NCBI GenBank assembly: GCA_902385655.1
Contig: CABMGO010000003.1
Location: 112,456 to 176,455 of the forward strand
DNA from: an uncultured archaeon
GTDB taxonomy: Archaea > Nanobdellota > Nanobdellia > Pacearchaeales > GW2011-AR1
Reading direction: 5' to 3'
Length of the DNA: 64,000 bases
Position 1 is the first letter of the stretch, and each line of letters opens with the position of its first letter. A program made the position numbers and the translations under genes. Below the pieces are notes generated by a model. It was not told the origin of the DNA. It worked only from the letters and a program-made list of their open reading frames with translations, and searched no databases. This document shows, piece by piece, positions 1 to 54,908 of the stretch.

Positions 1-5
1 TGAAA

Positions 6-1049
6 TTGATTAATCAGTTTTTAGAAAAGTTAACACATAAGAATTTATCGATTAGGAGAATTCAAGATTTAGAAATTTTAGATAAGTCTCTTCATGATTT
101 TGAGCATTCTTTTGGAAAGATTGGGGGGAATGCAAGATATACTCTTGAAAGCGTTATATTAAAAGCGGCTGCAAAAGAGGACAGAAAAGAGCTTTGGCAA
201 TTTGTTCATGATTCGATTGGTTCTGGACCAGTAAAAATGCCAATGCCCGTCGGAAATTGTATTGGAGGAGGATTGCATTCTGTAGGGATTAAAGGAAAAA
301 AACCTGACTTTCAAGAGTTCTTGTTAATCCCAAATGAAAAAAGATTTTCCACAGCAGTTACTAAAAATATTCATGCACAGAATTATGCAAAAAAGCTAGT
401 GAGAAGAAAAAATAAAGTTTTGTTTTTGAAAAGAAATGATGAAGGAGCTTGGAATACTGGAACAACAAATGAGGAAACTCTAGATATACTAAAAGAGGTT
501 GCAGACAAGTTTAATTTGAGAATTGGATTAGATGTTGCAAGTTCTAGTTTTTGTAATTCTCAAGGATATTATCCATACAAGAATAAAGAATTATTTAGAG
601 ACCGACTTGAACAAGTTGAATATATGAAGAATTTGATTGAGAAGTATAACCTTTTTTATGTTGAAGACCCTTTGAATGAAGAAGACTTTTCAGGATTTAA
701 GGAATTGCTTGCACAAGTTAGTGGGAAAAAAACATTAATTGCTGGAGACGATTTGACGACGACAAATTTGAAAAGAGTTGAGAGAGCTGTAAAAGCAAAT
801 TCAATAAATGCTGTAATTATCAAACCAAACCAAATTGGTTCTTTATTAGAAGTTATGAAAGTTGTTGATTTTTGTAAGAAAAATAAAATAAAAATGATTT
901 TTTCACATAGATCTGGAGAAACAATGGACAATGCGATTGCAGATTATGCAATTGGATTTGGTGCAGATTTTATAAAAACAGGAATTTATGGGCCAGAAAG
1001 GTTGGTTAAGTTGAGAAGGATTATGCAGATTGAAAAGGAGATTTTCTAG
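6..1049 (+). CDS. eno: Enolase, 5'-partial (reading frame open to the left window edge)
   Basis: Enolase barrel motifs IKPNQIGSL, SHRSGETMDNAIADYAIG, FIKTG, ERLVKLRRIMQIE. N-terminal domain is incomplete because the ORF runs off the window. Confidence 0.85.
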   Translation: MINQFLEKLTHKNLSIRRIQDLEILDKSLHDFEHSFGKIGGNARYTLESVILKAAAKEDRKELWQFVHDSIGSGPVKMPMPVGNCIGGGLHSVGIKGKKPDFQEFLLIPNEKRFSTAVTKNIHAQNYAKKLVRRKNKVLFLKRNDEGAWNTGTTNEETLDILKEVADKFNLRIGLDVASSSFCNSQGYYPYKNKELFRDRLEQVEYMKNLIEKYNLFYVEDPLNEEDFSGFKELLAQVSGKKTLIAGDDLTTTNLKRVERAVKANSINAVIIKPNQIGSLLEVMKVVDFCKKNKIKMIFSHRSGETMDNAIADYAIGFGADFIKTGIYGPERLVKLRRIMQIEKEIF

Positions 1050-2041: not shown

Positions 2042-2812
2042 ATGAAAGGCATATATTCACATTCTAAGATTAGCACATTTGAACAGTGTCCTTACAAGTA
2101 TAAGTTGCAGTATATTGATAAAATTAAACCAGATTTGAAGAATACTATTGAGGCTTTCATGGGAGGAATTGTTCATGAGACATTCGAAAAATTTTACAAG
2201 GATAAAAATTTGGGGTTGAGTCCGACTAGAGAAGAATTATTGAAATTTTTTGAAGAGAGTTGGGTAAAACAATTTACAAAAGACATTCATTTTGCAAAAG
2301 AGTATATGACCGAAGAGAACTATAAAGCAATTGGGAAAAGATTTGTTGTTGATTATTATGAAAGATTCAAGAATCAAAAAATAAAAGTTGTTGCACTTGA
2401 AACTGAAGAAACTATGGCTTTGCCCGACGGAAATGAGTGGCATGTTAGAATTGATAAATTGTGCGCAGATAGCAAAGGAAACTATTATGTTTGTGACTAT
2501 AAAACTAGCTCGAGAAAGAAAAGTCAGGAAGAGGCAGATAAAGACAGACAATTAGGGATGTATTCCATTTGGGTAAAAGACAAATACAAAGACGCAAAAT
2601 CGGTAAAATTGGTTTGGCATATGCTTGCTTTTAACGAAGATGTTTTTTCTGAAAGAACTGATGAACAAATTGATGCGCACAGAAAAGAAGTAGTTGAAGT
2701 AATTAAACAAATAGACAAGGCAACTCAAGAAAATAATTTTCCTGCGAATCCCAGTGCGTTGTGCAATTATTGTTTATTTCAGAATATTTGTCCTAGTTTT
2801 CAGGGAAATTAA
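2042..2812 (+). CDS. PD-(D/E)XK nuclease, Cas4/AddB-like with Cys cluster
   Basis: N-terminal CPYKY cysteine plus C-terminal CNYCLFQNICP (Cas4-type 4-Cys arrangement). Core D...DYKTS (D-x-K) motif. No CRISPR array or cas genes nearby. Confidence 0.7.
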   Translation: MKGIYSHSKISTFEQCPYKYKLQYIDKIKPDLKNTIEAFMGGIVHETFEKFYKDKNLGLSPTREELLKFFEESWVKQFTKDIHFAKEYMTEENYKAIGKRFVVDYYERFKNQKIKVVALETEETMALPDGNEWHVRIDKLCADSKGNYYVCDYKTSSRKKSQEEADKDRQLGMYSIWVKDKYKDAKSVKLVWHMLAFNEDVFSERTDEQIDAHRKEVVEVIKQIDKATQENNFPANPSALCNYCLFQNICPSFQGN

Positions 2813-11776: not shown

Positions 11777-13738
11777 GTGAAGAATTATAAGGTGGCAGAC
11801 GATTATAGTTATGAGAGCTTTTATGGTGGAGGAATTTCATCGTTTGAGCCAGAATATGGCAGCGCAAAAAATGGTGTGCCAGGTAATTTTACTGGATATA
11901 GACTAAATGCGTATCGACTGGGTTTTCCAGGATCTGTTCAGACAGCTAATCAAATTACCGAGGCAGTTAATGCTATCAAACAAGGTGTAACTGCTTTTGA
12001 AGTTAGTCTTGGAGATGCAAATACTGCGGAACAAATTCCAAAGCAACATTTTGATGAGATTCGAGCTTTGATGAAAATCACAGGAGTTACGCCGTCTGTT
12101 CATGCCCAATTTAATATTGACCCTGCAGGTTTGGGTGGAGAAAGAGGAACTTACGACGAAGTTACGAGACAAGAAAATGAAAGAAGATTTTTTGAAACTT
12201 TACAGAAAGCGAAAATGCTTAATCCAGACGGAAATACACCGGTAGTATTTCACTCCACAGGTATTGGTACTGGAACAGAATACGGCCCAGGAAAAGAAGG
12301 AGAGGAAAGATTCCAGGCGAAAAAACTCGCTCTGATCGATAAAGAGTCTGGGCAAATTGCGACGGTAATAAAGGAAGATCAGCAATATAATCCCTTTGAC
12401 TTAAAAGAATTAGAAAAAGGTGGAGCAAAACTTTCTTTGAAAACTGAAGAGGATATTCAGAAAAGAGTTTTTTCGGTTAATGAAACGCAATGGGACAAAA
12501 CGATGAATACTCTTAATGTTTACAAAAAAGAAGCAGATGAAATTATGGGCATATTGAGACAACCAGAGGCACAAGAGTTAGGAAAAATAATGGATGGGCT
12601 TACACAAGATAGGTTAAAAAAAATAAATGAAGAGGATCCTGAAACTGCTCAAAGAATAGGTGAACTTTCTATACAGCAGGGAAGAATTGGAAGTTTTTTG
12701 GATAACAATCGTCTGGCTTTTGTAAATGCTTTTGATAATGCATATAAGTATGGCTCGGAGAAACAAAAAGAGGAACTTAGGAATCTTTCTGAGGATTTAA
12801 CTGAAATGGAGAAGGAATCTAGAAATGGAGACCCAGTTGCTCAACAGATTATATTTTCCAGTATGCTTGATAAGGGAATTGCAGAATTGCATAAAATAAC
12901 TTCCGCAAGAGGAGAAAGGAAAGATGGAAAAGTTATTTATGATAATGACTGGGGAGCCCCAAAGCAATTTGTCCCAGTTGAAGAGTTTACTAAAGATAAA
13001 GCGACAGATACTTTTTCAAAGCTTGCATTTAGAAGTTTTGATGAACTTGGAAAAGGAGATGCCTCAAAAGCTCCAGTAATTGCAATAGAGAATATGAATC
13101 AAATGGGTTATGCAAAGCCCGAAGATTTTAAGAAAGTTATTGATAAATCCAGAGACAAGTTTGTAGACATGTTAATTGATAAAAAGGGAATGGAAGAGAA
13201 AGAGGCGAGAGAAGTTGCTGAGAAACTTATTGGAGTTACTTGGGATGTTGGTCACTTAAATATTTTAAAGAAAGAAGGTTTCACTGACAAAGATGTTATT
13301 GAGGCGACGGAAAAAATTGCCCCGTATGTAAAACATGTTCATCTTACTGACAATTTTGGTTATTCGGATTCGCATCTTGCGCCCGGAATGGGAAATGTTC
13401 CATTGAAAGAAATTTTAAAAAATTTGGAAGAAAAAGGAAAACTGAATGAAATTTCAAAGATTGTTGAGGCGCCAGGATTTGTTCAGCACTTTAAAAGATC
13501 CCCACATGGTTTGACTCTTGCAGCTTTGGGAAGTCCTTTGTATGGCCCTAAAATGGCACCATATTGGAATCAAGTTGCAGCTATGGGGAATGGAGGAGGA
13601 TATTTTGGTTCTCCATTGGCAATGATGCCGGAAAAACATTTTTCATTATATGGATCTGGATTTTCAAGTTTGCCCACAGAAGTTGGGGGCCAAATACCTG
13701 GAACAGGCTCGAGGTTTAGTGGAACACCCAATGCTTGA
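11777..13738 (+). CDS. Xylose-isomerase-like (AP endonuclease 2 type) TIM-barrel protein with a large helical insertion
   Basis: C-terminal WDVGHLN...KHVHLTDNFGYSDSHLAPGMGNVP is typical of the sugar-phosphate isomerase/epimerase TIM-barrel fold. N-terminal barrel strands (TAFEVSL, TPSVHAQ, VVFHST) are separated from it by about 250 aa of helical sequence. GTG start. Confidence 0.6.
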   Translation: MKNYKVADDYSYESFYGGGISSFEPEYGSAKNGVPGNFTGYRLNAYRLGFPGSVQTANQITEAVNAIKQGVTAFEVSLGDANTAEQIPKQHFDEIRALMKITGVTPSVHAQFNIDPAGLGGERGTYDEVTRQENERRFFETLQKAKMLNPDGNTPVVFHSTGIGTGTEYGPGKEGEERFQAKKLALIDKESGQIATVIKEDQQYNPFDLKELEKGGAKLSLKTEEDIQKRVFSVNETQWDKTMNTLNVYKKEADEIMGILRQPEAQELGKIMDGLTQDRLKKINEEDPETAQRIGELSIQQGRIGSFLDNNRLAFVNAFDNAYKYGSEKQKEELRNLSEDLTEMEKESRNGDPVAQQIIFSSMLDKGIAELHKITSARGERKDGKVIYDNDWGAPKQFVPVEEFTKDKATDTFSKLAFRSFDELGKGDASKAPVIAIENMNQMGYAKPEDFKKVIDKSRDKFVDMLIDKKGMEEKEAREVAEKLIGVTWDVGHLNILKKEGFTDKDVIEATEKIAPYVKHVHLTDNFGYSDSHLAPGMGNVPLKEILKNLEEKGKLNEISKIVEAPGFVQHFKRSPHGLTLAALGSPLYGPKMAPYWNQVAAMGNGGGYFGSPLAMMPEKHFSLYGSGFSSLPTEVGGQIPGTGSRFSGTPNA

Positions 13739-13740
13739 TA

Positions 13741-13912
13741 CACTTTTCCTCTAGCCCTGCATGAAAGAATTTCTATTCTCTAGAGAACCTATTGCACAGG
13801 TCCCGCATATTTTAGTTCTACGCTCTCCAATATCAGGTGTCCTCATCTGCATGATACACTTTTCCTGCATTGAAAACCTCCCATTTCAAAGTGTCCTCAT
13901 CTGCATGAGGAA
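13741..13912 (+). repeat. Three tandem copies (A1-A3) of the dispersed CCTGCAT/hairpin repeat family
   Basis: A3 (13857-13912) is cacttttCCTGCATtgaaaacctcccatttcaaaGTGTCCTCATctgcATGAGGAa. A2 (13800-13857) has the same boxes with a degenerate 3' arm. A1 (13741-13799) is degenerate. Near-identical to the copy at 54819-54874. Confidence 0.8.
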
Positions 13913-13948
13913 CATTTATAAAAGTCTGTTACTAGATAATAATAAAAG

Positions 13949-14833
13949 ATGGCGAAAGAAAAAAAAGGCGATAAGAAAGTTGAATCTAGTCCTGCTGTAA
14001 AAGTTCCTGAAGAAATCAAAGTAGCCATGGAAAAAGTTCCGACTATGAAGATTGTTGCTGAAAGAGATATTGCAATGGATTTTGCTACAAAAGTCTATAC
14101 AAAATTTGAAGAATTGGTGAAGGCAGTTATAATGTTTGGTAGTTCTGTAACTAAAGAATCTAAAAATAGTTCTGATATTGATGTGATTATATTAGTCGAT
14201 GATGCTACACTAAAATGGGACGATGAGTTGGTCTCAACTTACCGAGAAGAACTTGGAAAAATTATTCAGGCCAATCCTTACAGAAAACCATTACATGTCA
14301 ATACTGTGAAATTGACGACTTGGTGGCAAGATTTGATGAGAGGAGATCCAGTTGTGATTAACGTAATAAGGTATGGCGATCCTTTAATTGATCACGCCGG
14401 TTTTTTCTCGCCGATAAAAAATTTATTGAGAGATGGAAAGATAAGATCAACTCCAGAGGCAGTTTATACTTTATTACAGAGAGCTCCTGCGCACTTAGCT
14501 AGATCTCAGGCCTCTTTACTTTCTGCTGTAGATGGATATTATTGGGCTTGTGTTGATTCTGCTCACGCTGCTTTGATTTCTGCAGACATTCTTCCGCCAT
14601 CACCAGAACAAGTTGGAGACATCTTAGACGAAGTTTTTGTAAAGTCAAAAAAGAATTTGAAAAAGGAATATGTTGAGTTTTATAGAGAAGTTCATGAAAT
14701 GGCGAAGGATATTGTTCATGGGAAAATCGTTGAAGTTGATGTGAAGAATTTGAATAGCATACGAGAAGATACTCTTGAATTTGTTAGAGCAATGAGCGAA
14801 CTTGTTGAAGAAATTTTTAAAAGTAAGAAATAA
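13949..14833 (+). CDS. Nucleotidyltransferase (Pol-beta/MNT type) fused to a HEPN-like helical domain
   Basis: MFGSSVTKESKNSSDIDVIILVDD (GS...DxD) followed by a helical C-terminal half (AHLARSQASLLSAVDGYYWACVDSAHAAL). Confidence 0.65.
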   Translation: MAKEKKGDKKVESSPAVKVPEEIKVAMEKVPTMKIVAERDIAMDFATKVYTKFEELVKAVIMFGSSVTKESKNSSDIDVIILVDDATLKWDDELVSTYREELGKIIQANPYRKPLHVNTVKLTTWWQDLMRGDPVVINVIRYGDPLIDHAGFFSPIKNLLRDGKIRSTPEAVYTLLQRAPAHLARSQASLLSAVDGYYWACVDSAHAALISADILPPSPEQVGDILDEVFVKSKKNLKKEYVEFYREVHEMAKDIVHGKIVEVDVKNLNSIREDTLEFVRAMSELVEEIFKSKK

Positions 14834-18625: not shown

Positions 18626-19336
18626 TTATTTTGTTCTCCCAGCTCTTTCTAATTTTTCTTTTGCAATTTCAAAGTAAATGGGGTTTGATTCATAACCTCT
18701 GTATTCTCCCCCTCTATGAAGAACTTCTTTGCCTAGGCCTGCTGTTCCACTAAACTGTTCAAGAACTCTATTCCCTGGAACAAAATAAGTATCTAAGATA
18801 TCTTTTACTAACTCGGAGGGAAAAGGACAAGGATGCCCTTCTTTCTGTGTATAATAATATTTTCTTCCTGTAGGGAATTTGGTTAATTTCTGATGCATTT
18901 GCCCGAAAACCATCCCGACCATTTCTTGAGTATGACTGTTTTCAGGAGTAGTTGCATTTTCAAGTTCATTTAATGGAACACAACTAAAATCTTCTTCATA
19001 TACTTTGAATGAAAAAGAATCAACTAAGATTAGTCCTGCATTATCGCATAATCTGTCGTACTCTTCAGGATACTCGTGAACTCTCCCCTGTTTTTTTATT
19101 TTTACAGGAAGAAGTATGAGGGCTAGCCCAATTGGTTTTAAGACTCTCTGGGTTTCTTTTATAACTTTATTCATTGAGCTGAGATAGTTTAAATGTGAAG
19201 TTTCATCAACTTGTCCCTCATAGGCTAGGCCAATATTAAACGGTGGATCCATAACTGCTAGATCAATAGATTTTCCATTCAACTCATGCATCTTTTCAGA
19301 AGAACTATTGTATATTGCAAATTTTTGTGCTTCCAT
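18626..19336 (-). CDS. DNA methyltransferase, beta-class N4/N6 (motif IV before motif I)
   Basis: DLAVMDPPFNIG (DPPF) near the N-terminus and FSGTAGLGKEVL (FxGxG) near the C-terminus. Confidence 0.75.
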   Translation of the reverse strand: MEAQKFAIYNSSSEKMHELNGKSIDLAVMDPPFNIGLAYEGQVDETSHLNYLSSMNKVIKETQRVLKPIGLALILLPVKIKKQGRVHEYPEEYDRLCDNAGLILVDSFSFKVYEEDFSCVPLNELENATTPENSHTQEMVGMVFGQMHQKLTKFPTGRKYYYTQKEGHPCPFPSELVKDILDTYFVPGNRVLEQFSGTAGLGKEVLHRGGEYRGYESNPIYFEIAKEKLERAGRTK

Positions 19337-19347
19337 AGTATATTTTC

Positions 19348-20046
19348 CTAAAATTTATATCCCACACCAACAGAACCCCAATTCAAATCTTCTATTTTGG
19401 AGTCTAATGATTTTTGCATTTTCCCGGAAACATCTAAGCTTAAATTTCCTTTAGAAACTCCAAGTTTGATTCCAGCACTTATTTGAGAAAATCCATATTG
19501 ACCATACCAGTTGTTTGCCCAAGCACTATCTAGTGAAGGTGTAAGACTTATTTTTACTTTTCCATCATAAACAGGTACGCTTTTGTTTATTCCAAAAGTT
19601 ACTCGGTCTCCTAGCTTTACAGCGTCGTGTCCAACAAGATGAGCATAGCCCAAATTTGCATTTAACATACCACCATAATTTAGCCCTGCTGTTTGAACTG
19701 CATCAAAGTCTCCGAATCTTCCGTTTGGATAATCCCAAATTTGTGCTCCCACACTTCCAGAAAATTTGTCATTAATTTTTGAGGCATAGGTCACGCAATA
19801 ATCTCTTTCGCTTATTCCTTTCTCTCCAAGAAATTGATTCTCCCAGATTGCAAAATTAAATTTGCCAAAATTTAGAGACACTAAGTCTTGTCTACATTCT
19901 TCTTTTATAGCTGCTCCGACTGGAGAAACAAAGTCTGAAACCAAACTTGTTTCAAAATATGGTTTTGGTATGTCTGCTTTTACACTTCCAATTAATGCTC
20001 CAGCTCCAAGGATAATTCCTGCGACCAAACTTCTTACAGCTTTCAT
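19348..20046 (-). CDS. Secreted beta-barrel-like protein resembling the bacterial TorF/Gcw_chp outer-membrane family
   Basis: Signal peptide MKAVRSLVAGIILGAGALIGSVKA. Alternating-polarity strands, Gly/aromatic rich, C-terminal ...VGVGYKF. Segments VSDFVSPVG, FNFAIWENQ, ERDYCVTYA and IWDYPNG resemble the Gcw_chp pattern. Confidence 0.55.
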   Translation of the reverse strand: MKAVRSLVAGIILGAGALIGSVKADIPKPYFETSLVSDFVSPVGAAIKEECRQDLVSLNFGKFNFAIWENQFLGEKGISERDYCVTYASKINDKFSGSVGAQIWDYPNGRFGDFDAVQTAGLNYGGMLNANLGYAHLVGHDAVKLGDRVTFGINKSVPVYDGKVKISLTPSLDSAWANNWYGQYGFSQISAGIKLGVSKGNLSLDVSGKMQKSLDSKIEDLNWGSVGVGYKF

Positions 20047-21119
20047 TTTTTACCTCCGAATTCATGCCTTACTGCTAAGTATACTGCATGTTCTGGTTTA
20101 CTGTCTTGATTGAAATTTCCTCTATACCAAACTTGTGTAGGGCCGAATTGTCCACATATAGATGCTTCGAGTCCGTAATTATCTTTTACTAGATCCTTAT
20201 GAACTCCAGGAGTAACTAAGACATCCTTAACAAAACCATAATCTCCGACGTTTAGAGCAAACCTTGCGTAGGCAGATTTTCCATCTGTGTATCTTATATC
20301 TCCACCAACGTCTCCAGTTTTTTCTCCGCATTGGGCTTCTGCAGTTAAGAAATTGAAATTTCCAGATAATGCATACGGCATGGTTACATCAGATGAGATT
20401 GTCAAACTGTCAGTAGCCTCGCTAGGATCATTGACAAATCCTGGCATGACGCCGTATGAACCTGCACCATTTAATGCACTAGCTTTTCTTCCAAATCTTA
20501 CTCTAGCTTCGAAGAACCCGTTGTCTCCAGTTTTTATTCCACCATTTGCATTGTAGTTTTCAGTTATTTTTGTTGTTCCGAAAAATTGTGCTTCCCTGTA
20601 TAGCCCTTCATTTTGTCCGCCAGCCATACCTACTTTAGAATTTTTTCCAACTTGAACAAGAGTCATTGCTCTCCAGTCTCCGATAGTGTTAGCAGAAGCT
20701 TGTACTTCTAAGTTGTCTGTTGGTTTTAATCTCATTCTTCCTGCATAGCAGTCTTCTTTTTTTGGATCATCGAATTTGTCAGATTCTACTTCTATAAAAT
20801 TTATACCACTTTTCAAACCAAAAGAGTAATTAGCTATGTCTGAATCTGCTTTGTCATATTGTTTGACTCCAGCGTTTAATCTAAAATTATCATTTTCTGC
20901 ATTGACTCCGTAAGTGTCTCTTCCTTCGGATGTTTGCACTAATGCACGATTCATCCCGTAAGTAGCAATACTTTGAGATATTGGTTTTCCAGGATTTTCT
21001 AAGACCACTCTTTCTTCGAGGTTTAGAGCAGTTCCAGCATTTGCAAATGAAGAGATTAAGCTTGCTCCAGCAATTAAAGCTGTTCCAAATAATCTTCGAA
21101 AACTTGTTTTTATTGCCAT
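20043..21119 (-). CDS. Secreted beta-rich protein, porin-like (tentative)
   Basis: Signal peptide MAIKTSFRRLFGTALIAGASLISSFANA. Gly/Asn/aromatic-rich alternating strands, ends ...AVYLAVRHEFGGKK. ATG at 21119 preferred over TTG at 21143. Confidence 0.5.
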   Translation of the reverse strand: MAIKTSFRRLFGTALIAGASLISSFANAGTALNLEERVVLENPGKPISQSIATYGMNRALVQTSEGRDTYGVNAENDNFRLNAGVKQYDKADSDIANYSFGLKSGINFIEVESDKFDDPKKEDCYAGRMRLKPTDNLEVQASANTIGDWRAMTLVQVGKNSKVGMAGGQNEGLYREAQFFGTTKITENYNANGGIKTGDNGFFEARVRFGRKASALNGAGSYGVMPGFVNDPSEATDSLTISSDVTMPYALSGNFNFLTAEAQCGEKTGDVGGDIRYTDGKSAYARFALNVGDYGFVKDVLVTPGVHKDLVKDNYGLEASICGQFGPTQVWYRGNFNQDSKPEHAVYLAVRHEFGGKK

Positions 21120-21120
21120 A

Positions 21121-21777
21121 TTAGAATGTCCCCCTGACTGCAAGTCTTGCTTCTAATTCTGGAGTGATCTTTCCGTCGGCTGTTCCATTCATTGCCACAT
21201 TAGCTGCAACTTTTAGATTACCGATTCTTTTTCCTAATTCAATTTCTCCATAACACCATGTAGGCCCTGCTTTAGCAGCTAGATTTGCTTCTCCATAATT
21301 TGAAAGATAAAAATTTCCTGGAAGATCTTGTGAGACAAAATATCCTAGTTTGAATACATTGTGTTCTCTTCCATTTTCGTTAAACCATGCAGGCATAGCA
21401 TGTAAACATGCAAATGTTCCGTTTGGTAAACCGTGTAAATTATATTTTAATCCAAGCCCTGCTTCTGTGAATGGTTGATCAGCTTCTACAATTTGTAATC
21501 TTGCAGATAAATTATCGGTTAAATTTCTAGTTAAAGCTGTTTTACTAACATAAGCTCCATGGTCTTGATATTGATCTACAAAAGTATATCCTTGGACTTT
21601 ACCGGGCAAACTGTAAAAGGCATTAAGCTCTGCATAAGCATTTTTTGTATTTCTATCGCTGATTACTCCAATGTCTCCAGAAATAGGAGATGCACTGCCA
21701 TTCAATGTTAATCCAAGAAGCATGGATCCGATTAAGGCCATTTTCTTCCATTTACTTGTTTTTTGCGGTGTTACCAT
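21121..21777 (-). CDS. Secreted beta-barrel-like protein (tentative)
   Basis: Signal-like MALIGSMLLGLTLNGSASP, alternating strands, C-terminal ...EARLAVRGTF (terminal Phe). Confidence 0.5.
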   Translation of the reverse strand: MVTPQKTSKWKKMALIGSMLLGLTLNGSASPISGDIGVISDRNTKNAYAELNAFYSLPGKVQGYTFVDQYQDHGAYVSKTALTRNLTDNLSARLQIVEADQPFTEAGLGLKYNLHGLPNGTFACLHAMPAWFNENGREHNVFKLGYFVSQDLPGNFYLSNYGEANLAAKAGPTWCYGEIELGKRIGNLKVAANVAMNGTADGKITPELEARLAVRGTF

Positions 21778-28482: not shown

Positions 28483-28527
28483 ATTCTACTTTAACGAATT
28501 TAGTATATAAATGTATCAAACTGCGTG

Positions 28528-28592
28528 TATACTCTAGCCCCGTATGTTTTCTTTCTACCTCCTCCATCCTCCAGAGTCCTTCCCACAAAAAA
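28528..28592 (+). repeat. Degenerate copy (F) of the dispersed repeat family
   Basis: tatactctagccccgtatg...gagtccttcccacaaaaaa aligns with copy E (tatactctcgtcctgcat...gagtccttctatgcagaaggaaaaa) and A1 (ctctagccctgcatg). The hairpin is lost. A second possible remnant begins at cacctgcat, about 28655. Confidence 0.45.
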
Positions 28593-28746
28593 TTTTGCAT
28601 TTCTAATTTTTATTTTTGTTGCTTCGCATATACTTTGAAAAGTGAAATTTTTTCACCTGCATATGAACAAACCAATTCTTGGAGACATTCTTGCATAACG
28701 CCCATGCTGAAGGAATGTTTATAATCTTGAATAATGTTTAGATACT

Positions 28747-29700
28747 ATGTTGGAAAGAAAGAAGGTAGGTCTTGCACTTGGGGGTGGCGGTGCGAGAGGA
28801 ATTGCGCATATTGGAGTTCTGAAGGCTTTAGAAAAACATAAAATTCCGATAGATTTTATTTCGGGAACTAGTATCGGTGCTTTGATTGGAGCAATGTACT
28901 CTGCTCAACCAAATGCTAAGAAGTTAGAGAAAGAAATTCTTGAAACTAAGTGGCAAGATTTGTTTGATTATAAAATCCCTAGCGATGGTCTCATAAAAGG
29001 AATGAAGATAGAAAAGTTTCTTGAAGAAAAATTGGACAAATTAAAATTTAATCAATTGAAGATTCCTCTTTTTGTGACTTCCTATGATCTCGAGAAAAAG
29101 CAAGAAGTTATATTTCAAAAGGGAGATGTTGCTGCCGCAATTAGAGCAAGTATATCTATCCCCGGGATATTTGTACCTGCGGAGAACAGTGGGCGTTTGT
29201 TAGTGGATGGAGGGATTGTGGACTTAATTCCTGTGGAAATATTAAGAAAGAAAGGTGCAGAAAGTATTATTGCAGTAAACGCAGATTATATCCGAGAGAA
29301 AAAACCAATATTGGGACAAAATTCTGTTCCTAGTTATGGAAAGAGAAAAATTCCAGGAATAATTCATACACTTACTAAGTCTTTACAAGTAATTGAGGCT
29401 GAAGCTTCGAAAACCGAGTTGAGTATAAGCAGACCAGATCTACTCATAAATCTAAACTTAGAAGAAATTCCGACTCTGGACTTTTCTAACATGAAAAAAT
29501 TGATTAGGAAAGGAGAATTAGCGACCAACAGAACTATAAAACAGTTGAAGAAACTTACAAACCCGAATCCGATAAAAGAAATTTTAGAAGGAATAAGTTC
29601 AATTCCACTTGTTAAAGGAGTTGAGAAAAATATTGGTAAAGTTGCGGAAGATATCAGAGAGCTTGCGGTTGGAAAAAGCTCACCAGCCGATAAAAGTTAA
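28747..29700 (+). CDS. Patatin-like phospholipase
   Basis: GLALGGGGARGIAHIGVL (oxyanion GGGxRG), GTSIGA (GxSxG), VDGG (catalytic Asp). Confidence 0.85.
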   Translation: MLERKKVGLALGGGGARGIAHIGVLKALEKHKIPIDFISGTSIGALIGAMYSAQPNAKKLEKEILETKWQDLFDYKIPSDGLIKGMKIEKFLEEKLDKLKFNQLKIPLFVTSYDLEKKQEVIFQKGDVAAAIRASISIPGIFVPAENSGRLLVDGGIVDLIPVEILRKKGAESIIAVNADYIREKKPILGQNSVPSYGKRKIPGIIHTLTKSLQVIEAEASKTELSISRPDLLINLNLEEIPTLDFSNMKKLIRKGELATNRTIKQLKKLTNPNPIKEILEGISSIPLVKGVEKNIGKVAEDIRELAVGKSSPADKS

Positions 29701-29707
29701 GGAAGAA

Positions 29708-30121
29708 TCACTCCTGTCCTGCATTTTTACCAAGCTCGTGAGTTGTTCCCTGCGGAACAAAATTCAAAATATCTTGTTTTTTTACTTTTATTTCTTTAAA
29801 TTTTTTTACGCCAAAAGTCCCAGTTTTCATATCTTTGTCTTTTTTCACGTCATTGCTTAAGAAGTAATGAACCAAAACATCTTTTTTATTGTCTCTCCAA
29901 TCTTGAGAATGTTTTGCGCACATAACAGCCGCTTCGTAAAGTTCTTTTTCTGAAACTTCTACAGAATTTGATTTTATATTAGCAAACGGACTTCCAGGTT
30001 TTGAAGTGTGTAAAAGAATTTCCCCATTTTTTGCTTGTCCAATTAACTCTTCATTTGTTTCCGCAGATTTTCCTAGGAAAACTTGTTTCCCAGTTGTTGT
30101 TAAATATTTACGTAGGCTCAT
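29708..30121 (-). CDS. DUF814 / NFACT-R-like RNA-binding domain protein
   Basis: VFLGKSAETNEELIGQAKNGEILLHTSKPGSPFANIK. The last ~17 codons are encoded by repeat copy D. Confidence 0.6.
   Translation of the reverse strand: MSLRKYLTTTGKQVFLGKSAETNEELIGQAKNGEILLHTSKPGSPFANIKSNSVEVSEKELYEAAVMCAKHSQDWRDNKKDVLVHYFLSNDVKKDKDMKTGTFGVKKFKEIKVKKQDILNFVPQGTTHELGKNAGQE
29709..29760 (+). repeat. Copy D of the dispersed repeat family, overlapping the 3' end of the DUF814 gene
   Basis: cactcctgtCCTGCATttttaccaagctcgtgagttGTTCCctgcGGAACaa. Closest to copy E at 53161-53218. Confidence 0.7.
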
Positions 30122-31053: not shown

Positions 31054-31560
31054 ATGAAACAGAAAGAATTACAAAAGCAACTTGAAAGAATTGCAAAGAA
31101 AGTTGAGAAAAAAGAAATTGTAAAAAAGGCTGAGGAAGTTGCTAGAAAGCATGGAGATTACAAATCTGAAGTGTATCCATATCGGATAAAAGTTCACTAT
31201 AGATTTTCTGGAAAAGATTATGTTGGTGGCGAAATTGACATTAAAGGAAGTTCTGGATGGAGTGACTTTGGTGGAGAAGATCAAGAAATTTTTTATAATA
31301 GAAAAAGAGTTTTTTATGTTTCAACCTCTCCTGCATACACAGATTTTGGAACGCCGCAAGTAAAAGAACAACCAAATCAAGTAAAAATGGGCGAACTCTA
31401 TTTGCATGAATACTCGCCGGGACAATGGGAAACTCAGTTGAATAGAATCTATAAAAATGGTCCGAAAAAAGAAAAACCAAAAGTTGTAAAACCTGAAGAA
31501 AGAGAAGTAGAAAAATCTAAGCTGGAAGAATTGGCAGCGAGGTTGCCTTTAAAGATATGA
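31054..31560 (+). CDS. Hypothetical protein, paralog of 32877..33380
   Basis: N-terminal K/E helix then a beta-rich domain. EIDIKGSSGWSDFGG aligns with RIDLGGTSGYDGGYN in the paralog. Confidence 0.6.
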   Translation: MKQKELQKQLERIAKKVEKKEIVKKAEEVARKHGDYKSEVYPYRIKVHYRFSGKDYVGGEIDIKGSSGWSDFGGEDQEIFYNRKRVFYVSTSPAYTDFGTPQVKEQPNQVKMGELYLHEYSPGQWETQLNRIYKNGPKKEKPKVVKPEEREVEKSKLEELAARLPLKI

Positions 31561-32096
31561 TAAAGCGACCGTCCAGAATTGTCTTTACTGGCGGACCGTG
31601 TAGCGGAAAAACAACATTGCTTGAACAACTTGCTCTAAAAGGTTTAACTATTGTTCCTGAAACAGCAAGAATAATTATTGAACAAGAACAGAAAAGAGAT
31701 TCTGAAATTTTACCTTGGAGAAATTTATATGGTTTTCAAGAGGAAGTTGCGAGAGTACAATTAGAACAAGAACATTCTTATGAAGGCAGACATTTATTTT
31801 TAGATAGAGGAGTTGTAGACGGACATGGTTTCTCATTAAATGGGAAAATTCCTACTCCTGAAATAATTATGGATTTTGGAAAGAGCAGATACAATCTTGT
31901 TTTTCTTCTTGATCCTTTGCCAAATTACAAAAATGACTCATCTAGAAAAGAAACTCCTCAAATGGCTAGAAAAATACATGACAGACTTGATGAAGCATAT
32001 AGACATTTTGGATATCAACCAATTAGAATTCCAGTGCTTGGATCTGTAGAAGAAAGGGCAAACTATGCAACTAAATTATTGGAGAGAGTTTTATGA
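31557..32096 (+). CDS. AAA_28-type P-loop NTPase/kinase-like protein
   Basis: Walker A FTGGPCSGKTTLLEQL, then VPETARIIIEQE...LPWRN...FLDRGVVDGHGF, typical of the NadR-C/AAA_28 ATPase family. ATGA overlaps on both sides. Confidence 0.7.
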   Translation: MIKRPSRIVFTGGPCSGKTTLLEQLALKGLTIVPETARIIIEQEQKRDSEILPWRNLYGFQEEVARVQLEQEHSYEGRHLFLDRGVVDGHGFSLNGKIPTPEIIMDFGKSRYNLVFLLDPLPNYKNDSSRKETPQMARKIHDRLDEAYRHFGYQPIRIPVLGSVEERANYATKLLERVL

Positions 32097-32374
32097 GTTG
32101 GGGCGATGCCTTCATTGAAATAGAAGCAGAACGAAAAAGAAAGGAGAGAGCACCGATGGAAAAAAAATTGGAAAGATCATTTCCAAAACTTAACCAATAT
32201 GAAAGACTTTGTGCTTCTTTAAAGACGACTGAACTTCACGGAGATTGTTATGGCACTTGCAATGACGAAGAAAATCGAGGATCTTGCCCAGCATTTAAAC
32301 ACAGTTTAATGGCTAGTTATGTTGAGGTAAATGAGATTCACGAATGCCCTTATAGGAAGGAGAGAAGATCATGA
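32093..32374 (+). CDS. Small Cys/His-rich protein (93 aa)
   Basis: HGDCYGTCNDEENRGSCPAFKH ... HECPY. ATGA overlaps on both sides support translation. Confidence 0.55.
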   Translation: MSWGDAFIEIEAERKRKERAPMEKKLERSFPKLNQYERLCASLKTTELHGDCYGTCNDEENRGSCPAFKHSLMASYVEVNEIHECPYRKERRS

Positions 32375-32880
32375 GTAACGGAAAGGAAGTAGAAGTGAAA
32401 ATTGAAATTGATAGAGAGAAAAAATTTGAACAGATTTATGAGATGATTGGAAGACCAGATTGGACTCTACAAAGAAATTATATTTTTGCATTTTCTGGAA
32501 ACATTCTTCGATTAAGATATGAAGATAGGACTGGAAAAGCCTACTTAACATTCAAAGGAAAAGATATTGGCGAAACTTTTAATTGTAGAGAAGAGAAGGA
32601 GAGCGATATACCTGCGGAGCTGTTTAGAAGTATAGCGAGAAGTCTGTCAAAGAGACCAATACAAGAATTCTCTAATCAACCACATTACTATGAAAAAAGT
32701 CGTGCACAAGCAAACTATGGGAATTGTGTTGTCTGTCTAGATAATTTTTTTGGAACATATTACTGCGAGATTGAAGGCGATGAAAAAAGCATTAAAAAGC
32801 TCATACGAAAATTTGGTCTTGAAGATTTCCCTCGTGAAAAAAGAAGTTATCTTAAAATGTTAATGGAGAAACAAAAATGA
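32371..32880 (+). CDS. CYTH-domain triphosphate tunnel metalloenzyme (CyaB/ThTPase-like)
   Basis: EVEVKIEI (EXEXK), LRLRYE, LTFKGK, CREEKE, YEKSRAQ, VCLDNFFGTYYCEIEGD. Confidence 0.8.
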   Translation: MSNGKEVEVKIEIDREKKFEQIYEMIGRPDWTLQRNYIFAFSGNILRLRYEDRTGKAYLTFKGKDIGETFNCREEKESDIPAELFRSIARSLSKRPIQEFSNQPHYYEKSRAQANYGNCVVCLDNFFGTYYCEIEGDEKSIKKLIRKFGLEDFPREKRSYLKMLMEKQK

Positions 32881-33380
32881 AAAGTCTTGAAGAGTATCTT
32901 AAAAAAAGAGAAGCTGAACTTGAGAAAATAAGAAAAGAAGTCGGACTTTTAAGAAGCGCGAAAATGCCTTTGAAGATCAGAGAGTATTCTAACGGAATTG
33001 GACTAATTTCTGAAGATTATTCTTTGGCAGAAGATTTTGAAATAAAAAAGAGAAGAATAGATCTTGGCGGAACAAGTGGTTATGATGGAGGCTATAATTC
33101 GGGGAGATATGAAAGTTATCCGCGATTTTATTTTAACTTAGAATTTGAAGGACTTGTCGAACCAGTTTATATTGAACATGAAGGATTTGAAAAAGATGAA
33201 AGAATTGTGATTCGTAGTGTTACTGTAACTCATGGCACTAAAGAATATTCTAGTATGAATTCAACAAATGAGAATTTCGTTGATGTGCGAAAAACTTTTA
33301 ATTTTTTTAGAGAAAGAGGAGTGAAACCTGTGCTATTAGATCGTCTTGCAAAGAGAATTAAAGAGGCGGAGGAATTTTGA
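32877..33380 (+). CDS. Hypothetical protein, paralog of 31054..31560
   Basis: Same architecture and shared ID(I/L)xGxSG(W/Y) motif. Confidence 0.6.
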   Translation: MKSLEEYLKKREAELEKIRKEVGLLRSAKMPLKIREYSNGIGLISEDYSLAEDFEIKKRRIDLGGTSGYDGGYNSGRYESYPRFYFNLEFEGLVEPVYIEHEGFEKDERIVIRSVTVTHGTKEYSSMNSTNENFVDVRKTFNFFRERGVKPVLLDRLAKRIKEAEEF

Positions 33381-33388
33381 GGTGAAAA

Positions 33389-34255
33389 GTGGCATGCATT
33401 GAAAAAATTTATAGCGTATCGGCACTAGTTGGTGATGGGAGATGCAATGCCAATTGTGGATTTTGTGCTGGAAAATATTTGAGACCACAAGCAAAACCTA
33501 ATCCTAATTATGAAAAAAATTTAGAGGCTGCAATAAAACTATCTGCGCGTTATGGCGGCTGGTCCCTATCTTTAACTTCTAGTGGTGAGCCAACTTGTGA
33601 CCCGGCTTCTTTGACCAGAGCATTAGACATTTATAAAAAATGTGCGGACCAGGGAGCATATTTTCCAAATGTGAATTTATTTACTAATGGAATTTTATTA
33701 GGTGATGAAGAATTTTGTAAACAATATCTTCCAGGGTGGAAAGAGCGAGGATTGACAAACGTTGCACTTTCAATACATCATCCGGATGAAAAAATGCAAG
33801 CAGAAGCATACGGTCTTCAAAGTTATCCGCAATTTGAAAAAATTGTTGCGAATGTAAGAGAACAGGAATTAGGAGTTAGAGCTACCTTGTTATTAAGAAA
33901 AGATGGAATAGACGACTCAAGTAGTTATGGTTCGGCAATTGAAGATTTAGTTGAGAAAGGAATTGATAATATAACTTCTTGGCCAATTGGAAATCCGGAT
34001 GGAACAAGAAATGAGTTTACTCCTTCCAGACTAGGACTTTTTGGAATTAGAAGATGGTTGCACAAAAATGCTAAACTCTGTCACGGGCATGAGTGGGGCG
34101 GAGGAGTTTATGATTACAAAGGAAATATTTTGAGAATAACAGATTATGTTACGAAACATGATCCGAAAAAAGATTTTGTCAGACAGCTTGTTGTTTTTCA
34201 AGATGGGACTGTTGCTTATTCGTGGATAAAGGAAGGTGCACTATGTATGAAGTAA
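33389..34255 (+). CDS. Radical SAM enzyme, compact (288 aa), paralog 1
   Basis: GDGRCNANCGFCAGK (CX3CX2C), SSGEPTCDP, FTNGILL. GTG start 5 nt after a GAGGTGA Shine-Dalgarno-like sequence. Confidence 0.8.
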   Translation: MACIEKIYSVSALVGDGRCNANCGFCAGKYLRPQAKPNPNYEKNLEAAIKLSARYGGWSLSLTSSGEPTCDPASLTRALDIYKKCADQGAYFPNVNLFTNGILLGDEEFCKQYLPGWKERGLTNVALSIHHPDEKMQAEAYGLQSYPQFEKIVANVREQELGVRATLLLRKDGIDDSSSYGSAIEDLVEKGIDNITSWPIGNPDGTRNEFTPSRLGLFGIRRWLHKNAKLCHGHEWGGGVYDYKGNILRITDYVTKHDPKKDFVRQLVVFQDGTVAYSWIKEGALCMK

Positions 34256-35058
34256 AACCTGAAGAAAAGTTAACAAGTTTATCTATATTAGTGGGCACAG
34301 GAAATTGTAATGCTAATTGTGGATTTTGCGCTGGGAAACCATTAAGAAAATATGCTCCAAAAGCAGATGGACAGTTTGATGAGGCCCTAGTTAGAAAAAC
34401 TCTGGCAGATTGTTTCAAACGAGGAGCAAGTTATCTTTCTTTAAGCAGTTGTGGTGAACCGACGCTATCGCCTCTTTCAGTAACTAAAGTTTTAGGTCTT
34501 GTTCAAGAATGTGCAAATGAAGGAATGAGTTATTCTCCAGTTAATCTTTATTCAAATGGTATTCGAATAGGAGAAGATAAAAAATTCTCTGAAAAGTATT
34601 TGCCACTTTGGAAAAATCTTGGACTTACTACAATGTATATTACAGTTCATGATATCGATGAAGAGAATAATGCAAGAGTTTATGGAGTTAAATCTTATCC
34701 TTCTCTCGAGGATGTTTTTTCGCGAGTTAGAGATGCTGAATTGTCAATTAGGACTAATTTGGTTTTGAGTCGCGGAGCAGTTGATTCTTATGAAAGATTT
34801 ATTGAGGCAATTGATTATTTGCAAAAAATTGGTGCAGATAATATTTCTGCTTGGCCACTGCGTGATGAAACTGATGGAATTGATCTTGCACGTTCTCCGG
34901 ATAAATCTGAATTAGTAAGAATACATGATTTTGTTGAAAGAGATACTAGTGGAAGATTAAGGATGATTTTTGAAGAAAAACCAACACACTATCATTCTGA
35001 AAAGAAATTGACATTATTCCCAGATGGAAGTCTTGCGAGTTCTTGGTGTAATAGATAA
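34243..35058 (+). CDS. Radical SAM enzyme, compact (about 271 aa), paralog 2
   Basis: GTGNCNANCGFCAGK, SCGEPTLSP, YSNGIRI, colinear with paralog 1. ATG at 34243 overlaps the paralog 1 end by 13 nt. Confidence 0.8.
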   Translation: MYEVKPEEKLTSLSILVGTGNCNANCGFCAGKPLRKYAPKADGQFDEALVRKTLADCFKRGASYLSLSSCGEPTLSPLSVTKVLGLVQECANEGMSYSPVNLYSNGIRIGEDKKFSEKYLPLWKNLGLTTMYITVHDIDEENNARVYGVKSYPSLEDVFSRVRDAELSIRTNLVLSRGAVDSYERFIEAIDYLQKIGADNISAWPLRDETDGIDLARSPDKSELVRIHDFVERDTSGRLRMIFEEKPTHYHSEKKLTLFPDGSLASSWCNR

Positions 35059-35700
35059 TTAGAAAACGTCTTCGGAAGTTAATTCTTTTGCTGGAGTTTC
35101 TGATGCTTCTCCACCTTTCTCTTTTAATCTTTTCAAAGCTGCACGAACATTTTTGTTCAATTGCTTCATAGATTCTTCTAATTGTTCCTTATTCTTTGTT
35201 CCAGTACATACAAGTTTTCCGTTGCTGAAAAGCAAGAAAGTTGCAGTTGGGTCTTCGAGTTTGTAAACTAAGCCTGGGAATTGTTCAGGTTCATATTCTG
35301 TATTTTCTAATTCCAAAGAAAGTGTGTTTAAGTTTAAGTCAAGATTGATACTTCCTGAAGCTACAATGTTTTGAACATTAATCTTTGGTTTGATTTTTAC
35401 ATGAACACCAATTTTCTTTAATTGTTTTATAACTTGATCAATGACTTCTCTGACTTGGGCAATAGATTTAACTCCAGTACAAACAAGATTTCCGGATGAG
35501 AAAACTAAAACTGCAGATTTAGGTTGTTTGATTCTTAAAACAAGTCCTGGAAATGTTTCAGGATTATACTCTGTATTTGGCTGTGTTCTTGCTAATTTTG
35601 ATAAAGAAACTTCTTCTTCAAGAGAGGTTGTAGCGACGATATTTTGAACTTTTAAAGAATCTTCAGGCTTCTCAACTTTTTTTGATTTTGCTGCTGCCAT
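35059..35700 (-). CDS. tbp: TATA-box binding protein
   Basis: Two TBP repeats (VQNIVATTSLEEEVSL...FPGLVLRIKQPKSAVLVFSSGNLVCTG and VQNIVASGSINLDLNL...FPGLVYKLEDPTATFLLFSNGKLVCTG) and an acidic tail. Confidence 0.95.
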   Translation of the reverse strand: MAAAKSKKVEKPEDSLKVQNIVATTSLEEEVSLSKLARTQPNTEYNPETFPGLVLRIKQPKSAVLVFSSGNLVCTGVKSIAQVREVIDQVIKQLKKIGVHVKIKPKINVQNIVASGSINLDLNLNTLSLELENTEYEPEQFPGLVYKLEDPTATFLLFSNGKLVCTGTKNKEQLEESMKQLNKNVRAALKRLKEKGGEASETPAKELTSEDVF

Positions 35701-35705
35701 TTCTA

Positions 35706-35730
35706 TTTATAAAGGGAGTGGCTTTATAAA
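35706..35730. promoter_or_regulatory. Two palindromic TTTATAAA boxes upstream of tbp
   Basis: TTTATAAA at 35706-35713 (5 nt from the ATG) and 35723-35730 (22 nt from the ATG), each within CTTTATAAA. Confidence 0.5.
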
Positions 35731-35804
35731 GGCTTTGGTTTGACCGAGATAATACTAATTTCCAAGATATAAATTCTTAAAAATAGCGAATATGTTTTTT
35801 TGAA

Positions 35805-40489: not shown

Positions 40490-41029
40490 ATGAGTCACAT
40501 TAACATTGAAATAAAAGCGAAATCTACTAATCATGTGCACATAAGAGAAATTTTAAAATCTCTTAATGCAGAATTCAAGGGCATAGATCATCAAATAGAC
40601 ACTTACTTTAAAACTTCTCAAGGAAGATTAAAACTTCGCCAAGGTAATATAGAAAATAGTTTGATAGGCTATAAGCGAGAAAATCAAGAAGGACCAAAAC
40701 AGTCTGATGTTTTTTTGTATAATGTTGATCCAAAAGAAAGAACAAAATTGAAAGAAGCACTTGCGAGTACTTTGGGTATTTTAGTTGAGGTAGACAAGAA
40801 GAGAGAAATTTATTTTGTAGATAATGTAAAGTTTCATTTAGATAATGTAGAAGGTTTGGGAACATTTGTTGAAATTGAAGCGATAGACAAAGATCTGACA
40901 ATTGGAAAAGAAAACTTGCTTAGCCAGTGCAAAAAATATATGGAATTATTTGATATAAAAGATTCCGATCTTATTTCTGTTTCATATAGTGATTTGCTTT
41001 TAGAAAAAGCTCTTTCAAAAAGAAAATAA
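40490..41029 (+). CDS. CYTH-domain protein, class IV adenylate cyclase (CyaB)-like
   Basis: INIEIKAK (EXEXK), RLKLRQ, IGYKRE, VDKKREIYF, FHLDNVEGLGTFVEIEA. Confidence 0.8.
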   Translation: MSHINIEIKAKSTNHVHIREILKSLNAEFKGIDHQIDTYFKTSQGRLKLRQGNIENSLIGYKRENQEGPKQSDVFLYNVDPKERTKLKEALASTLGILVEVDKKREIYFVDNVKFHLDNVEGLGTFVEIEAIDKDLTIGKENLLSQCKKYMELFDIKDSDLISVSYSDLLLEKALSKRK

Positions 41030-53119: not shown

Positions 53120-53160
53120 GATTTGTAAAGAAACTCCTCGTTTAAAAGGTTAATTATTGA

Positions 53161-53218
53161 TATACTCTCGTCCTGCATTTTTGCCTGGCTCGTGAGTCCT
53201 TCTATGCAGAAGGAAAAA
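53161..53218 (+). repeat. Copy E of the dispersed repeat family
   Basis: tatactctcgtCCTGCATttttgcctggctcgtgagTCCTTCTatgcAGAAGGAaaaa, between the pepS-like stop and the valS start. Confidence 0.75.
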
Positions 53219-53223
53219 TCTTC

Positions 53224-54803: not shown

Positions 54804-54818
54804 AATAGGGTTAACTTA

Positions 54819-54874: not shown

Positions 54875-54908
54875 AAGGGTTTAAATATCTCTCCTCATTG
54901 CTATAAAA

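Follow-up and report, generated by a model that had tools for sequence, protein, structure and literature searches.

Short double-hairpin DNA elements in and between genes of DPANN archaea: a probable family of selfish mobile palindromes

The genomes of DPANN archaea are very small, and mobile DNA is considered scarce in them. The systems closest to the element described here are known from other genomes. Among them are the double-hairpin elements in mitochondria of yeasts and other fungi, reportedly described by Paquin et al. in 2000. Mitochondrial GC clusters occur sporadically, merge or nest, and occasionally lie in a protein gene (var1/rps3), with a mobilising activity that is unknown (PMC4478555). 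The Rickettsia palindromic elements (RPEs), reportedly described by Ogata et al. in 2000 and summarised in later papers, are inferred to be translated as tolerated surface segments, have no known transposase and include many decayed copies (PMC10969869, PMC3733652). Some repetitive extragenic palindromes (REPs) lie inside genes (PMC3733652), and miniature transposable elements with inverted repeats (MITEs) have been described in archaea such as Sulfolobus, haloarchaea (Halobacterium, Haloquadratum), Desulfurococcus and others (PMC10969869). Here we analysed 64,000 nt of an uncultured archaeon (GenBank assembly GCA_902385655.1, contig CABMGO010000003.1, positions 112,456 to 176,455 of the forward strand; this whole 64-kb stretch is called the window), in which an earlier note had pointed out a dispersed repeat with a hairpin, present three times in tandem at 13741–13912 and singly elsewhere. 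We read this repeat, with a probability of roughly three in four, as a family of small, non-autonomous, selfish mobile hairpin DNA in DPANN archaea (Pacearchaeota/Woesearchaeota-like). Copies have been gained at many unrelated sites, including sites inside essential genes, and have then decayed; those within open reading frames (ORFs) keep the frame, and new copies can land head-to-tail in resident ones.

Each unit of the family is ∼50–60 nt long, with a core of about 50 nt, and consists of two adjacent helices, P1 and P2. In P1 (6 bp), the 6 nt at the 5′ end of the unit pair with the 6 nt directly 5′ of P2 and enclose a loop of 20–25 nt, which starts with a nearly invariant (Y)CCTGCAT box. 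P2 follows without a spacer and has 7 bp closed by an NTGC tetraloop. We aligned 14 copies from the window, close relatives and six metagenome contigs, 11 of which are non-orthologous; in all 14, GAG or GTG precedes P2 and an A follows it. The earlier note had described complementary stems in a single hairpin. The stem pairs it quoted are correct and the double-sided changes hold up, but the structure has two helices, P1 being the addition, with pairs such as CACTTT/AAAGTG, CACTTG/CAAGTG, CTCCTG/CAGGAG, CTCTGG/CCAGAG and CTCAGG/CCTGAG. Standard pairs fill 98.3% of the pair cells of the 14-copy alignment, and 9 of the 13 pairs show double-sided changes. The covariation score was 0.60, compared to 0.20 after shuffling (0 of 500 shuffles reached 0.60) and ∼0.12 when the partner was slid by 1–3 columns. 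The 11 non-orthologous copies on their own gave nearly the same picture (97.9% paired, 9/13 pairs with double-sided changes, score 0.59). Since P1 was part of no search pattern, its covariation is an independent and unbiased confirmation. Non-orthologous copies, moreover, share stems: two copies of the window have TCCTCAT, TTGTTCC occurs both there and in L123, and TCCTTCT both there and in L125 (L numbers name sampled relatives and metagenome loci), which shows that the stems are inherited together with the element.

From the 14 copies we built a covariance model, R1, and ran it without filters across both strands of the window, as well as over relatives. In the window it returned five full copies at 60–74 bits and two degenerate ones (17.9 and 12.4 bits), followed by noise at ≤11 bits, the best score on the minus strand being 10.9 bits. 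The maximum in 649 kb of unrelated control DNA, pre-selected by a primary-sequence pattern, was 24 bits. The dispersed family proposed from the sequence is real. All copies listed at that time are likewise present on reading the sequence. Altogether, the window holds eight units at six loci (∼1 locus per 10 kb), all on the + strand, of which five are intact and three decayed or truncated (Table 1). Simpler searches agreed: a degenerate primary-sequence pattern of box and hairpin matched four times in the window vs 0 times in 100 shuffles, and a hairpin scan found five 7-bp stems that pair perfectly around an NTGC tetraloop, every one of them on the + strand. A looser pattern run over genome contigs gave at least 115 chance matches in bacteria; among those listed, one had a complementary stem, itself attributable to chance. 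The copies are 0.40–0.52 G+C in a window of ∼0.34. The decayed copy at 28527–28594 is a weak member by score, although its register and orientation suggest that it belongs to the family.

Crucial for how the family is understood are the copies inside genes. Six independent intragenic insertions were found, in Kae1, an NFACT-domain gene, enolase, arginyl-tRNA synthetase and, at two different sites, a GNAT acetyltransferase gene. They use three frames over both strands (S1, S2 and A2), all are free of stop codons, and the host protein sequence resumes normally; most copies of the family are in fact stop-free in five of the six frames. The Kae1 and NFACT copies lie within ORFs, so these two are not intergenic. 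Judged by their frames, the intragenic copies would be translated as an extra loop or tail of 16–29 residues. The residues across P2 vary between hosts (SQE, MQM, LHR, PQG) while the pairing stays perfect, which argues for a constraint on the nucleic acid and not on the peptide.

In Kae1, an insert of 23–29 aa is present only in the window protein (358 aa) and its orthologue from L116 (357 aa), which have a common segment (IFLSQERTLENG... in the window, IFLSQKRTLENGENAGPE... in L116); the nearest homologues, 71–78% identical and mostly 333–336 aa long (one 342 aa), are without it. Translated antisense, the window copy reads IFLSQERTLENGRSHAGQVPSQESKS. In the DNA of L116 the gene is longer by exactly 69 bases, which lie between ATT TTC and TTT. 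An AlphaFold model of the window Kae1 has a mean confidence (pLDDT) of 81, and its only long internal low-confidence stretch, residues 313–328 with pLDDT <50, falls within the insert, which would fit a surface loop that is tolerated. In the alignment (window, P0203, P0209, P0213, P0216, P0235, P0237, P0215), the loop following ..YLG(I/E).. close to the Kae1 C-terminus is a hot spot for insertions, and several other DPANN Kae1 proteins carry unrelated K/N-rich inserts there. Kae1 of P0215 has a 38-aa insert at another position. Read on the minus strand, the NFACT copy at 29706–29765 encodes the C-terminal 16 residues (VPQGTTHELGKNAGQE) of the NFACT-R ORF together with its stop codon. The window protein has 137 aa; its homologues among the 120 matches listed have 120–140 aa, most of them 120–132. 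The eight homologues that were aligned finish with ..DILxFE, as in ..DILxFEKxxx, and then a short tail of unrelated sequence; of the best 120 alignments, most extend to about 88% of the query. The NFACT gene of L141 carries the same copy shifted by one base, and therefore in another reading frame than in the window.

Comparison with relatives showed where the element has come and gone. The window, part of a 242-kb contig, encodes archaeal proteins (Kae1, MCM, TBP, eRF1 and the ribosomal proteins L15e, S19e and L31e), and the best homologues of the flanking proteins carry Nanoarchaeota, Pacearchaeota or Woesearchaeota annotation in metagenome-assembled genomes. In 41.6 kb of the closest relative, contig Ga0451520_0000119 (sampled as L116 and L140; proteins 87–88% identical to those of the window), there are one intact copy and two decayed remnants. 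One copy is present in L141, a fragment that is closer still (NFACT 91% identical). No copy was found in ∼122 kb from six other relatives (L134 together with L143, L135, L137, L138, L139 and L144). A specific pattern scan of a metagenome collection returned 14 loci, seven of them true and located on six low-GC contigs (L120, L121 with the near-identical L128, L123, L125, L129 and L130), where both the stems and P1 are perfect; the rest were chance matches without pairing. L123 and L129 each hold a second copy. The element also occurs in a more distant group, with an enolase 59% identical. Viral contigs gave only a chance match (21.6 bits), and phage and plasmid collections gave nothing. This uneven presence among relatives makes the family patchy, like mobile DNA.

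Filled and empty versions of the same site were found repeatedly. At the 3′ end of NFACT, the element is present in the window and in L141, and the site is empty in L140 and L144. The enolase insertion of L121 has its empty counterpart in the enolase gene of the window (3–1049), and the GNAT genes of L123 and L130 have their insertions at different positions, so that each is unoccupied where the other is filled. The array of the window lies in a spacer that separates the AP-endonuclease-like gene from the nucleotidyltransferase gene; this spacer is a clean 36-nt empty site in L144 (stop-AC-ATTTATAAAT) and contains a decayed remnant in L140. In L116, the spacer upstream of the class I aminoacyl-tRNA synthetase (aaRS) gene has a decayed orthologue of the copy at 53160–53219 (about 12050–12125), and the 60-nt spacer orthologous to the 54814–54877 site has neither the element nor the 114-aa ORF that adjoins it in the window (54459–54803, minus strand, no Pfam match).

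The array at 13741–13912 records a gradient of decay, with unit 1 most decayed, unit 2 intermediate and unit 3 intact. Unit 2 starts 0–1 nt past the loop of unit 1 and unit 3 starts 4–6 nt past the loop of unit 2, and a single 3′ arm closes the array. Judged by its sequence, such an arrangement would be expected if new units had inserted one after another, head-to-tail, into a resident copy. The P1 loops of the units differ too much for simple tandem duplications. Unit 3 ends 36 nt 5′ of the ATG at 13949, and a host TATA box, ATTTATAAAAG, lies directly downstream of it. We considered promoter donation by the element and rejected it, as the TATA boxes downstream of 13855–13912 and 54814–54877 are also present at the empty or decayed sites of the relatives.

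We propose that the element would be moved in trans by an enzyme supplied from elsewhere, and that both hairpins could act as DNA-level recognition features for this mobilisation, most likely in the form of folded single-stranded DNA. Lineages in which the two arms lose their complementarity would stop propagating, which would leave compensatory differences among subfamilies, and the host would tolerate the element rather than profit from it. The earlier note had taken the complementary stems as a sign of selection on structure. Conserved pairing supports this, but what is selected is most plausibly the ability to propagate and not a host function. As to the enzyme, HUH/Y1 transposases, which move IS200/IS605 and REP elements, would be candidates by analogy. 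The lack of terminal inverted repeats and of a consistent target-site duplication, the short motif at the foot of the stem and the co-oriented neighbours all point towards such a single-strand, hairpin-recognising mechanism, which we put forward tentatively. Considerably more speculative is the idea that the 5′ arm of P2 might act as a guide by pairing to a purine-rich target strand, in the way that guide sequences at IS200/IS605 ends recognise their cleavage sites through pairing. If so, a change in the arm would retarget the element, and resident copies would attract new ones head-to-tail; the covariation in the stem would partly record guide–target matching, and the enzyme would be an unrecognised single-strand DNA transposase of DPANN archaea. 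A related idea, that the 3′ arm of P2 is derived from the target, was rejected: L144 puts the whole arm in the insert, non-orthologous copies share their stems, and the likeness of the empty sites to the arm is not significant.

Several observations weigh against selfish, mobile hairpin DNA or blunt the case for it. Pfam scans of 60 ORFs of the window, all but a few short ones, revealed no transposase or recombinase. Neither the window nor any of the other loci analysed contains a longer element that shares these ends. Neither terminal inverted repeats nor a consistent target-site duplication, for which the earlier note had suggested looking, were found in the flanks of 10 copies and in six filled/empty pairs; the look-alikes (AGGGTTAA/AGGGTTTAA at 54814 and AAGAGAA/AAGAGGA in L123) are isolated and not general. 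The ends of the element can be placed only to within a few nucleotides, the closest filled/empty pairs being 60–90% identical. Translation of the intragenic copies is suggested by the conservation of their frames. Perfect palindromes can, moreover, also be maintained without selection, through intrastrand template-switch correction. Finally, the orientation bias comes from few loci (6/6 in the window and 2/2 in L123). That every copy of the window lies on the + strand irrespective of gene direction, as first noticed from the sequence, is correct for all six loci (two-sided p = 0.03, counting loci), and L123 and its orthologue L129 likewise each have their two copies in one orientation; we regard the bias as suggestive only. 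The GC skew of the window follows gene orientation and no Orc1/Cdc6 gene is present among the Pfam-scanned ORFs, and a link of element orientation to replication is hypothetical.

Could the helices instead be kept for a host function, as in a small RNA gene or a cis-regulatory mRNA element? The strong covariation in both helices would fit, folding energies are modestly better than those of shuffled sequences (z −1.6 to −3.2), and two copies end 36–37 nt upstream of a start codon. However, Rfam 15 gave 0 matches at gathering thresholds over the whole window, and in a permissive scan of 13600–14000 the best scores were 13–22 bits against thresholds of 35–80, which agrees with the earlier note, where no known RNA family had been recognised. 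The copies bear no fixed relation to genes, since they lie sense and antisense in ORFs, in 3′ and 5′ spacers and between divergent genes; orthologous sites in close relatives are empty or decayed; and the TATA boxes next to some copies are host sequence. Only 1 of 142 pair cells is a G-U pair, and this near-absence fits a constraint on both DNA strands better than an RNA read off one strand. The hint of a structured RNA gene contained in the earlier note is thus not sustained by coding-sequence copies in both orientations and three frames, by empty sites and decay, or by the pairing itself, and we consider this explanation improbable. Still less can be said for a protein-level module, that is, a short peptide common to several proteins with the DNA similarity as a by-product. 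One antisense frame, F-L-x-Q-x-R-T-x-E-x-G-K-N-A-G-x-E, is open in nearly all copies, but the host genes read three frames on both strands, intergenic copies are equally conserved and some have stops in those frames, the residues over P2 change freely above perfect base pairing, the Kae1 segment is predicted to be disordered, and the orthologous copy common to L141 and the window is read in a different frame in each. This explanation is close to refuted.

Two DNA-level explanations deserve a slightly better, if still low, rating, which is about equal for both. In one, the repeats are sites of a site-specific recombinase similar to integron attC sites, which act as folded single strands, and cassettes are gained or lost between co-oriented sites. 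It would account for a structure that is more conserved than the sequence and for the co-orientation. The patatin gene at 28747–29700 lies between two co-oriented copies, is absent in L140 and occurs with the element in L141, and L123 and L129 differ in the genes between two orthologous copies. Yet the attC cores RYYYAAC and GTTRRRY are absent from the alignment, the Pfam scans found no integrase in the window, most copies are single and lie in or beside housekeeping genes, six of them in frame within ORFs, and comparison with L140 does not show the patatin region as a clean insertion. In the other, no enzyme is needed: copies arise during replication by template switching or annealing at purine-rich microhomologies, and the hairpins are kept by intrastrand correction. 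The absence of a visible transposase and of a target-site duplication would fit, and at five empty sites GGAAA-like purine runs resemble the 3′ arm of P2 with its A tail (GGGAAAAAA, GGAGGAAAA, AGCAGAAAA, AAAGAAAAC and CGAACAATAAAA). This microhomology is, however, not significant (p 0.12–0.25 for each site, ∼0.06 by Fisher combination), and the clean empty site of L144 has no purine run, contradicting a GGAAA-like preference. The invariant CCTGCAT box and the covariation in P1 are also hard to explain without a recognition step.

A number of specific identities were tried and rejected. C/D-box, H/ACA, tRNA-like and ribozyme RNAs fit neither by eye nor by Rfam. The folds are two plain helices without the geometry of an archaeal bulge–helix–bulge intron, in which a 4-bp helix separates two 3-nt bulges, and splicing is further opposed by the six intragenic copies, which keep the frame and lack stops, neither of which splicing would require. 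A terminator would need a T-run after the hairpin, which is missing on the strand of the element, while the other strand has its T-run before the hairpin. An operator for a transcription factor is incompatible with stem sequences that vary among copies.

Table 1. Units of the double-hairpin element in the window, and intragenic copies in related contigs. Paired segments are given 5′ to 3′; scores are those of model R1.
Feature	Position or locus	Strand	P1	Box and P2	Basis	Setting
Array unit 1, oldest and most decayed	13741–13794	+	intact, CTCTAG 13749–13754 with CTAGAG 13780–13785	CCTGCAT box kept; only AACCTAT-TGC of P2 left	match 13744–13811, 17.9 bits, E 0.005	interrupted by unit 2
Array unit 2, truncated	13795–13854	+	weakened, CACAGG with CAGGTG, 4/6 pairs	box mutated to CCCGCAT; arm TCCTCAT, loop CTGC, 3′ arm only ATGA	sequence reading	followed by unit 3
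Array unit 3, intact	13855–13912	+	13857–13862 with 13888–13893	13894–13900 TCCTCAT, loop 13901–13904 CTGC, 13905–13911 ATGAGGA	match 13852–13916, 60.7 bits; fold	
Decayed copy	28527–28594	+	recognisable, CTCTAG with CCAGAG	box mutated to CCCGTAT; P2 lost	12.4 bits, E 0.16	between YhbY-like and patatin genes
Intact copy	29706–29765	+	29711–29716 with 29737–29742, one mismatch	29743–29760, TTGTTCC CTGC GGAACAA	70.4 bits	3′ end of NFACT-R ORF 29708–30121
Intact copy	53160–53219	+	53165–53170 with 53191–53196, one mismatch	53197–53214, TCCTTCT ATGC AGAAGGA	74 bits	between M29 aminopeptidase and class I aaRS genes (both minus)
Intact copy	54814–54877	+	54819–54824 with 54849–54854, one mismatch	54855–54872, TCCTCAT CTGC ATGAGGA	59.6 bits	between ORF 54459–54803 (−) and metallophosphoesterase gene 54909–55544 (+)
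Intact copy	62702–62776	+	62719–62724 with 62748–62753	62754–62771, TCCTTTC CTGC GAAAGGA	match 62714–62776, 65.2 bits	inside Kae1/TsaD ORF 62605–63681 (−)
18-nt partial duplication (CTCTCCTGCGAAGG..)	62702–62719					Kae1 copy
Intragenic copy	L121	sense to gene				enolase, in frame
Intragenic copy	L120	sense to gene				arginyl-tRNA synthetase, in frame
Intragenic copy	L123/L129	sense to gene				GNAT acetyltransferase, in frame
Intragenic copy	L130	sense to gene				GNAT acetyltransferase, other position, in frame

Some features of the neighbourhood are worth recording. The gene at 28747–29700 (+), lying between the copies at 28527–28594 and 29706–29765, encodes a patatin-like phospholipase. The NFACT and YhbY genes of L140 are 172 nt apart with no patatin gene, and L141 has NFACT, the element and patatin; the patatin gene may have been gained or lost along with the repeats. 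The regions L123 5777–7404 and L129 546–2266 have orthologous flanks, one side carrying a zinc-ribbon ORF and its copy, the other a GNAT gene and its copy; the gene between the copies encodes a 204-aa protein of unknown function in L123 vs a 253-aa LAGLIDADG endonuclease in L129. Elsewhere in the window, an N6/N4 DNA methylase gene followed by three ORFs of 218–366 aa without a Pfam match (18626–21777, −) may be an island for restriction-modification or defence. The cluster at 31054–36764 and 40490–41029 comprises an AAA_28 ATPase, two proteins with CYTH domains and three radical-SAM genes; the radical-SAM genes at 33389–34255 and 34222–35058 are adjacent paralogues with a common 68-nt repeat. 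A PD-(D/E)XK/Cas4-like nuclease gene is located at 2042–2812 (+), with no CRISPR array or other cas gene seen in the window, and ARAGORN detected no tRNA gene in the 64 kb.

The element has entered the genes for Kae1, enolase and arginyl-tRNA synthetase without destroying them. This has been known mainly from Rickettsia and from organelles; palindromic parasites inserted in frame would thus seem to recur in reduced, AT-rich genomes of two domains of life. Insertions of this kind account for odd C-terminal tails and internal inserts in annotated DPANN proteins, and the filled and empty sites are presence/absence markers for population genetics at the strain level. R1 can in turn serve as bait in the search for an enzyme that moves hairpin DNA in DPANN archaea.

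How does the family relate to the described systems? We found no description of such an element in DPANN or other archaea in the open full-text literature. Classical MITEs can be set aside, in agreement with the earlier note, which had recognised no MITE family. Like archaeal MITEs, the element is non-autonomous and multicopy; they, however, are typically longer and have target-site duplications and terminal inverted repeats that match a parent insertion sequence (IS), none of which were found here, and the inverted repeats of our element are internal (P1 and P2). Integron attC sites are defined by an R″/L″...L′/R′ organisation with their cores and by arrays downstream of intI; here the aligned copies have no such cores and the Pfam-scanned ORFs of the window include no integrase. 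The IS200/IS605 palindrome-associated elements are closer in architecture, with subterminal hairpins at both ends, as here too terminal inverted repeats and a duplication are lacking and P1 and P2 occupy the two halves of the unit. They insert next to a fixed tetra- or pentanucleotide, with a strand bias tied to replication; in our element every P2 is followed by A and GGAAA-like flanks are frequent, the resemblance of empty sites to this being only p ∼0.06 and absent in L144.

The REP/RAYT systems have in common with the family that hairpins take the place of terminal inverted repeats, that no clear target-site duplication is seen and that a short motif (here GAG/GTG) stands beside the stem. 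The orientation bias would also be compatible with single-strand, replication-coupled transposition of the REP/RAYT type. On the other hand, none of the tags GTAG, CTAC, CGTC or GACG was present at either border in the 14 aligned copies, and the Pfam scans of the 60 window ORFs contained no Y1_Tnp domain of a RAYT/TnpA protein. REPs are usually extragenic and often form head-to-head pairs (BIME/REPIN), whereas the copies here are single or head-to-tail, without inverted pairs, and six are intragenic. To our knowledge, archaeal REP/RAYT systems have not been established. Mitochondrial GC clusters and double-hairpin elements are likewise short palindromes that are richer in G+C than their AT-rich host, with stems more conserved than loops, but they are organellar and unrelated in sequence, and GC clusters have AG or ACT flanking repeats, which were not seen here.

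In behaviour the element resembles the RPEs, which are small palindromes of a reduced, AT-rich genome, found in frame in unrelated housekeeping genes whose orthologues are without the insert. RPEs are ∼100–150 bp long and have a CGTC tag, while this element has a core of ∼50–60 nt and no such tag; it is also archaeal (DPANN), is built from two short hairpins with a CCTGCAT box, and occurs in head-to-tail, co-oriented copies. It therefore shares the functional class of the RPEs, that of an in-frame selfish palindrome, and stands apart from their sequence family, RPE-1 to RPE-10, judged on length and tag. By sequence and defining tags, as far as the aligned copies tell, the element lies outside the REP, RPE and GC-cluster families, and the best explanation is that double-hairpin DNA of a new mobile family, one of the REP/RPE-like selfish palindromes, inserts in frame into genes of DPANN archaea.

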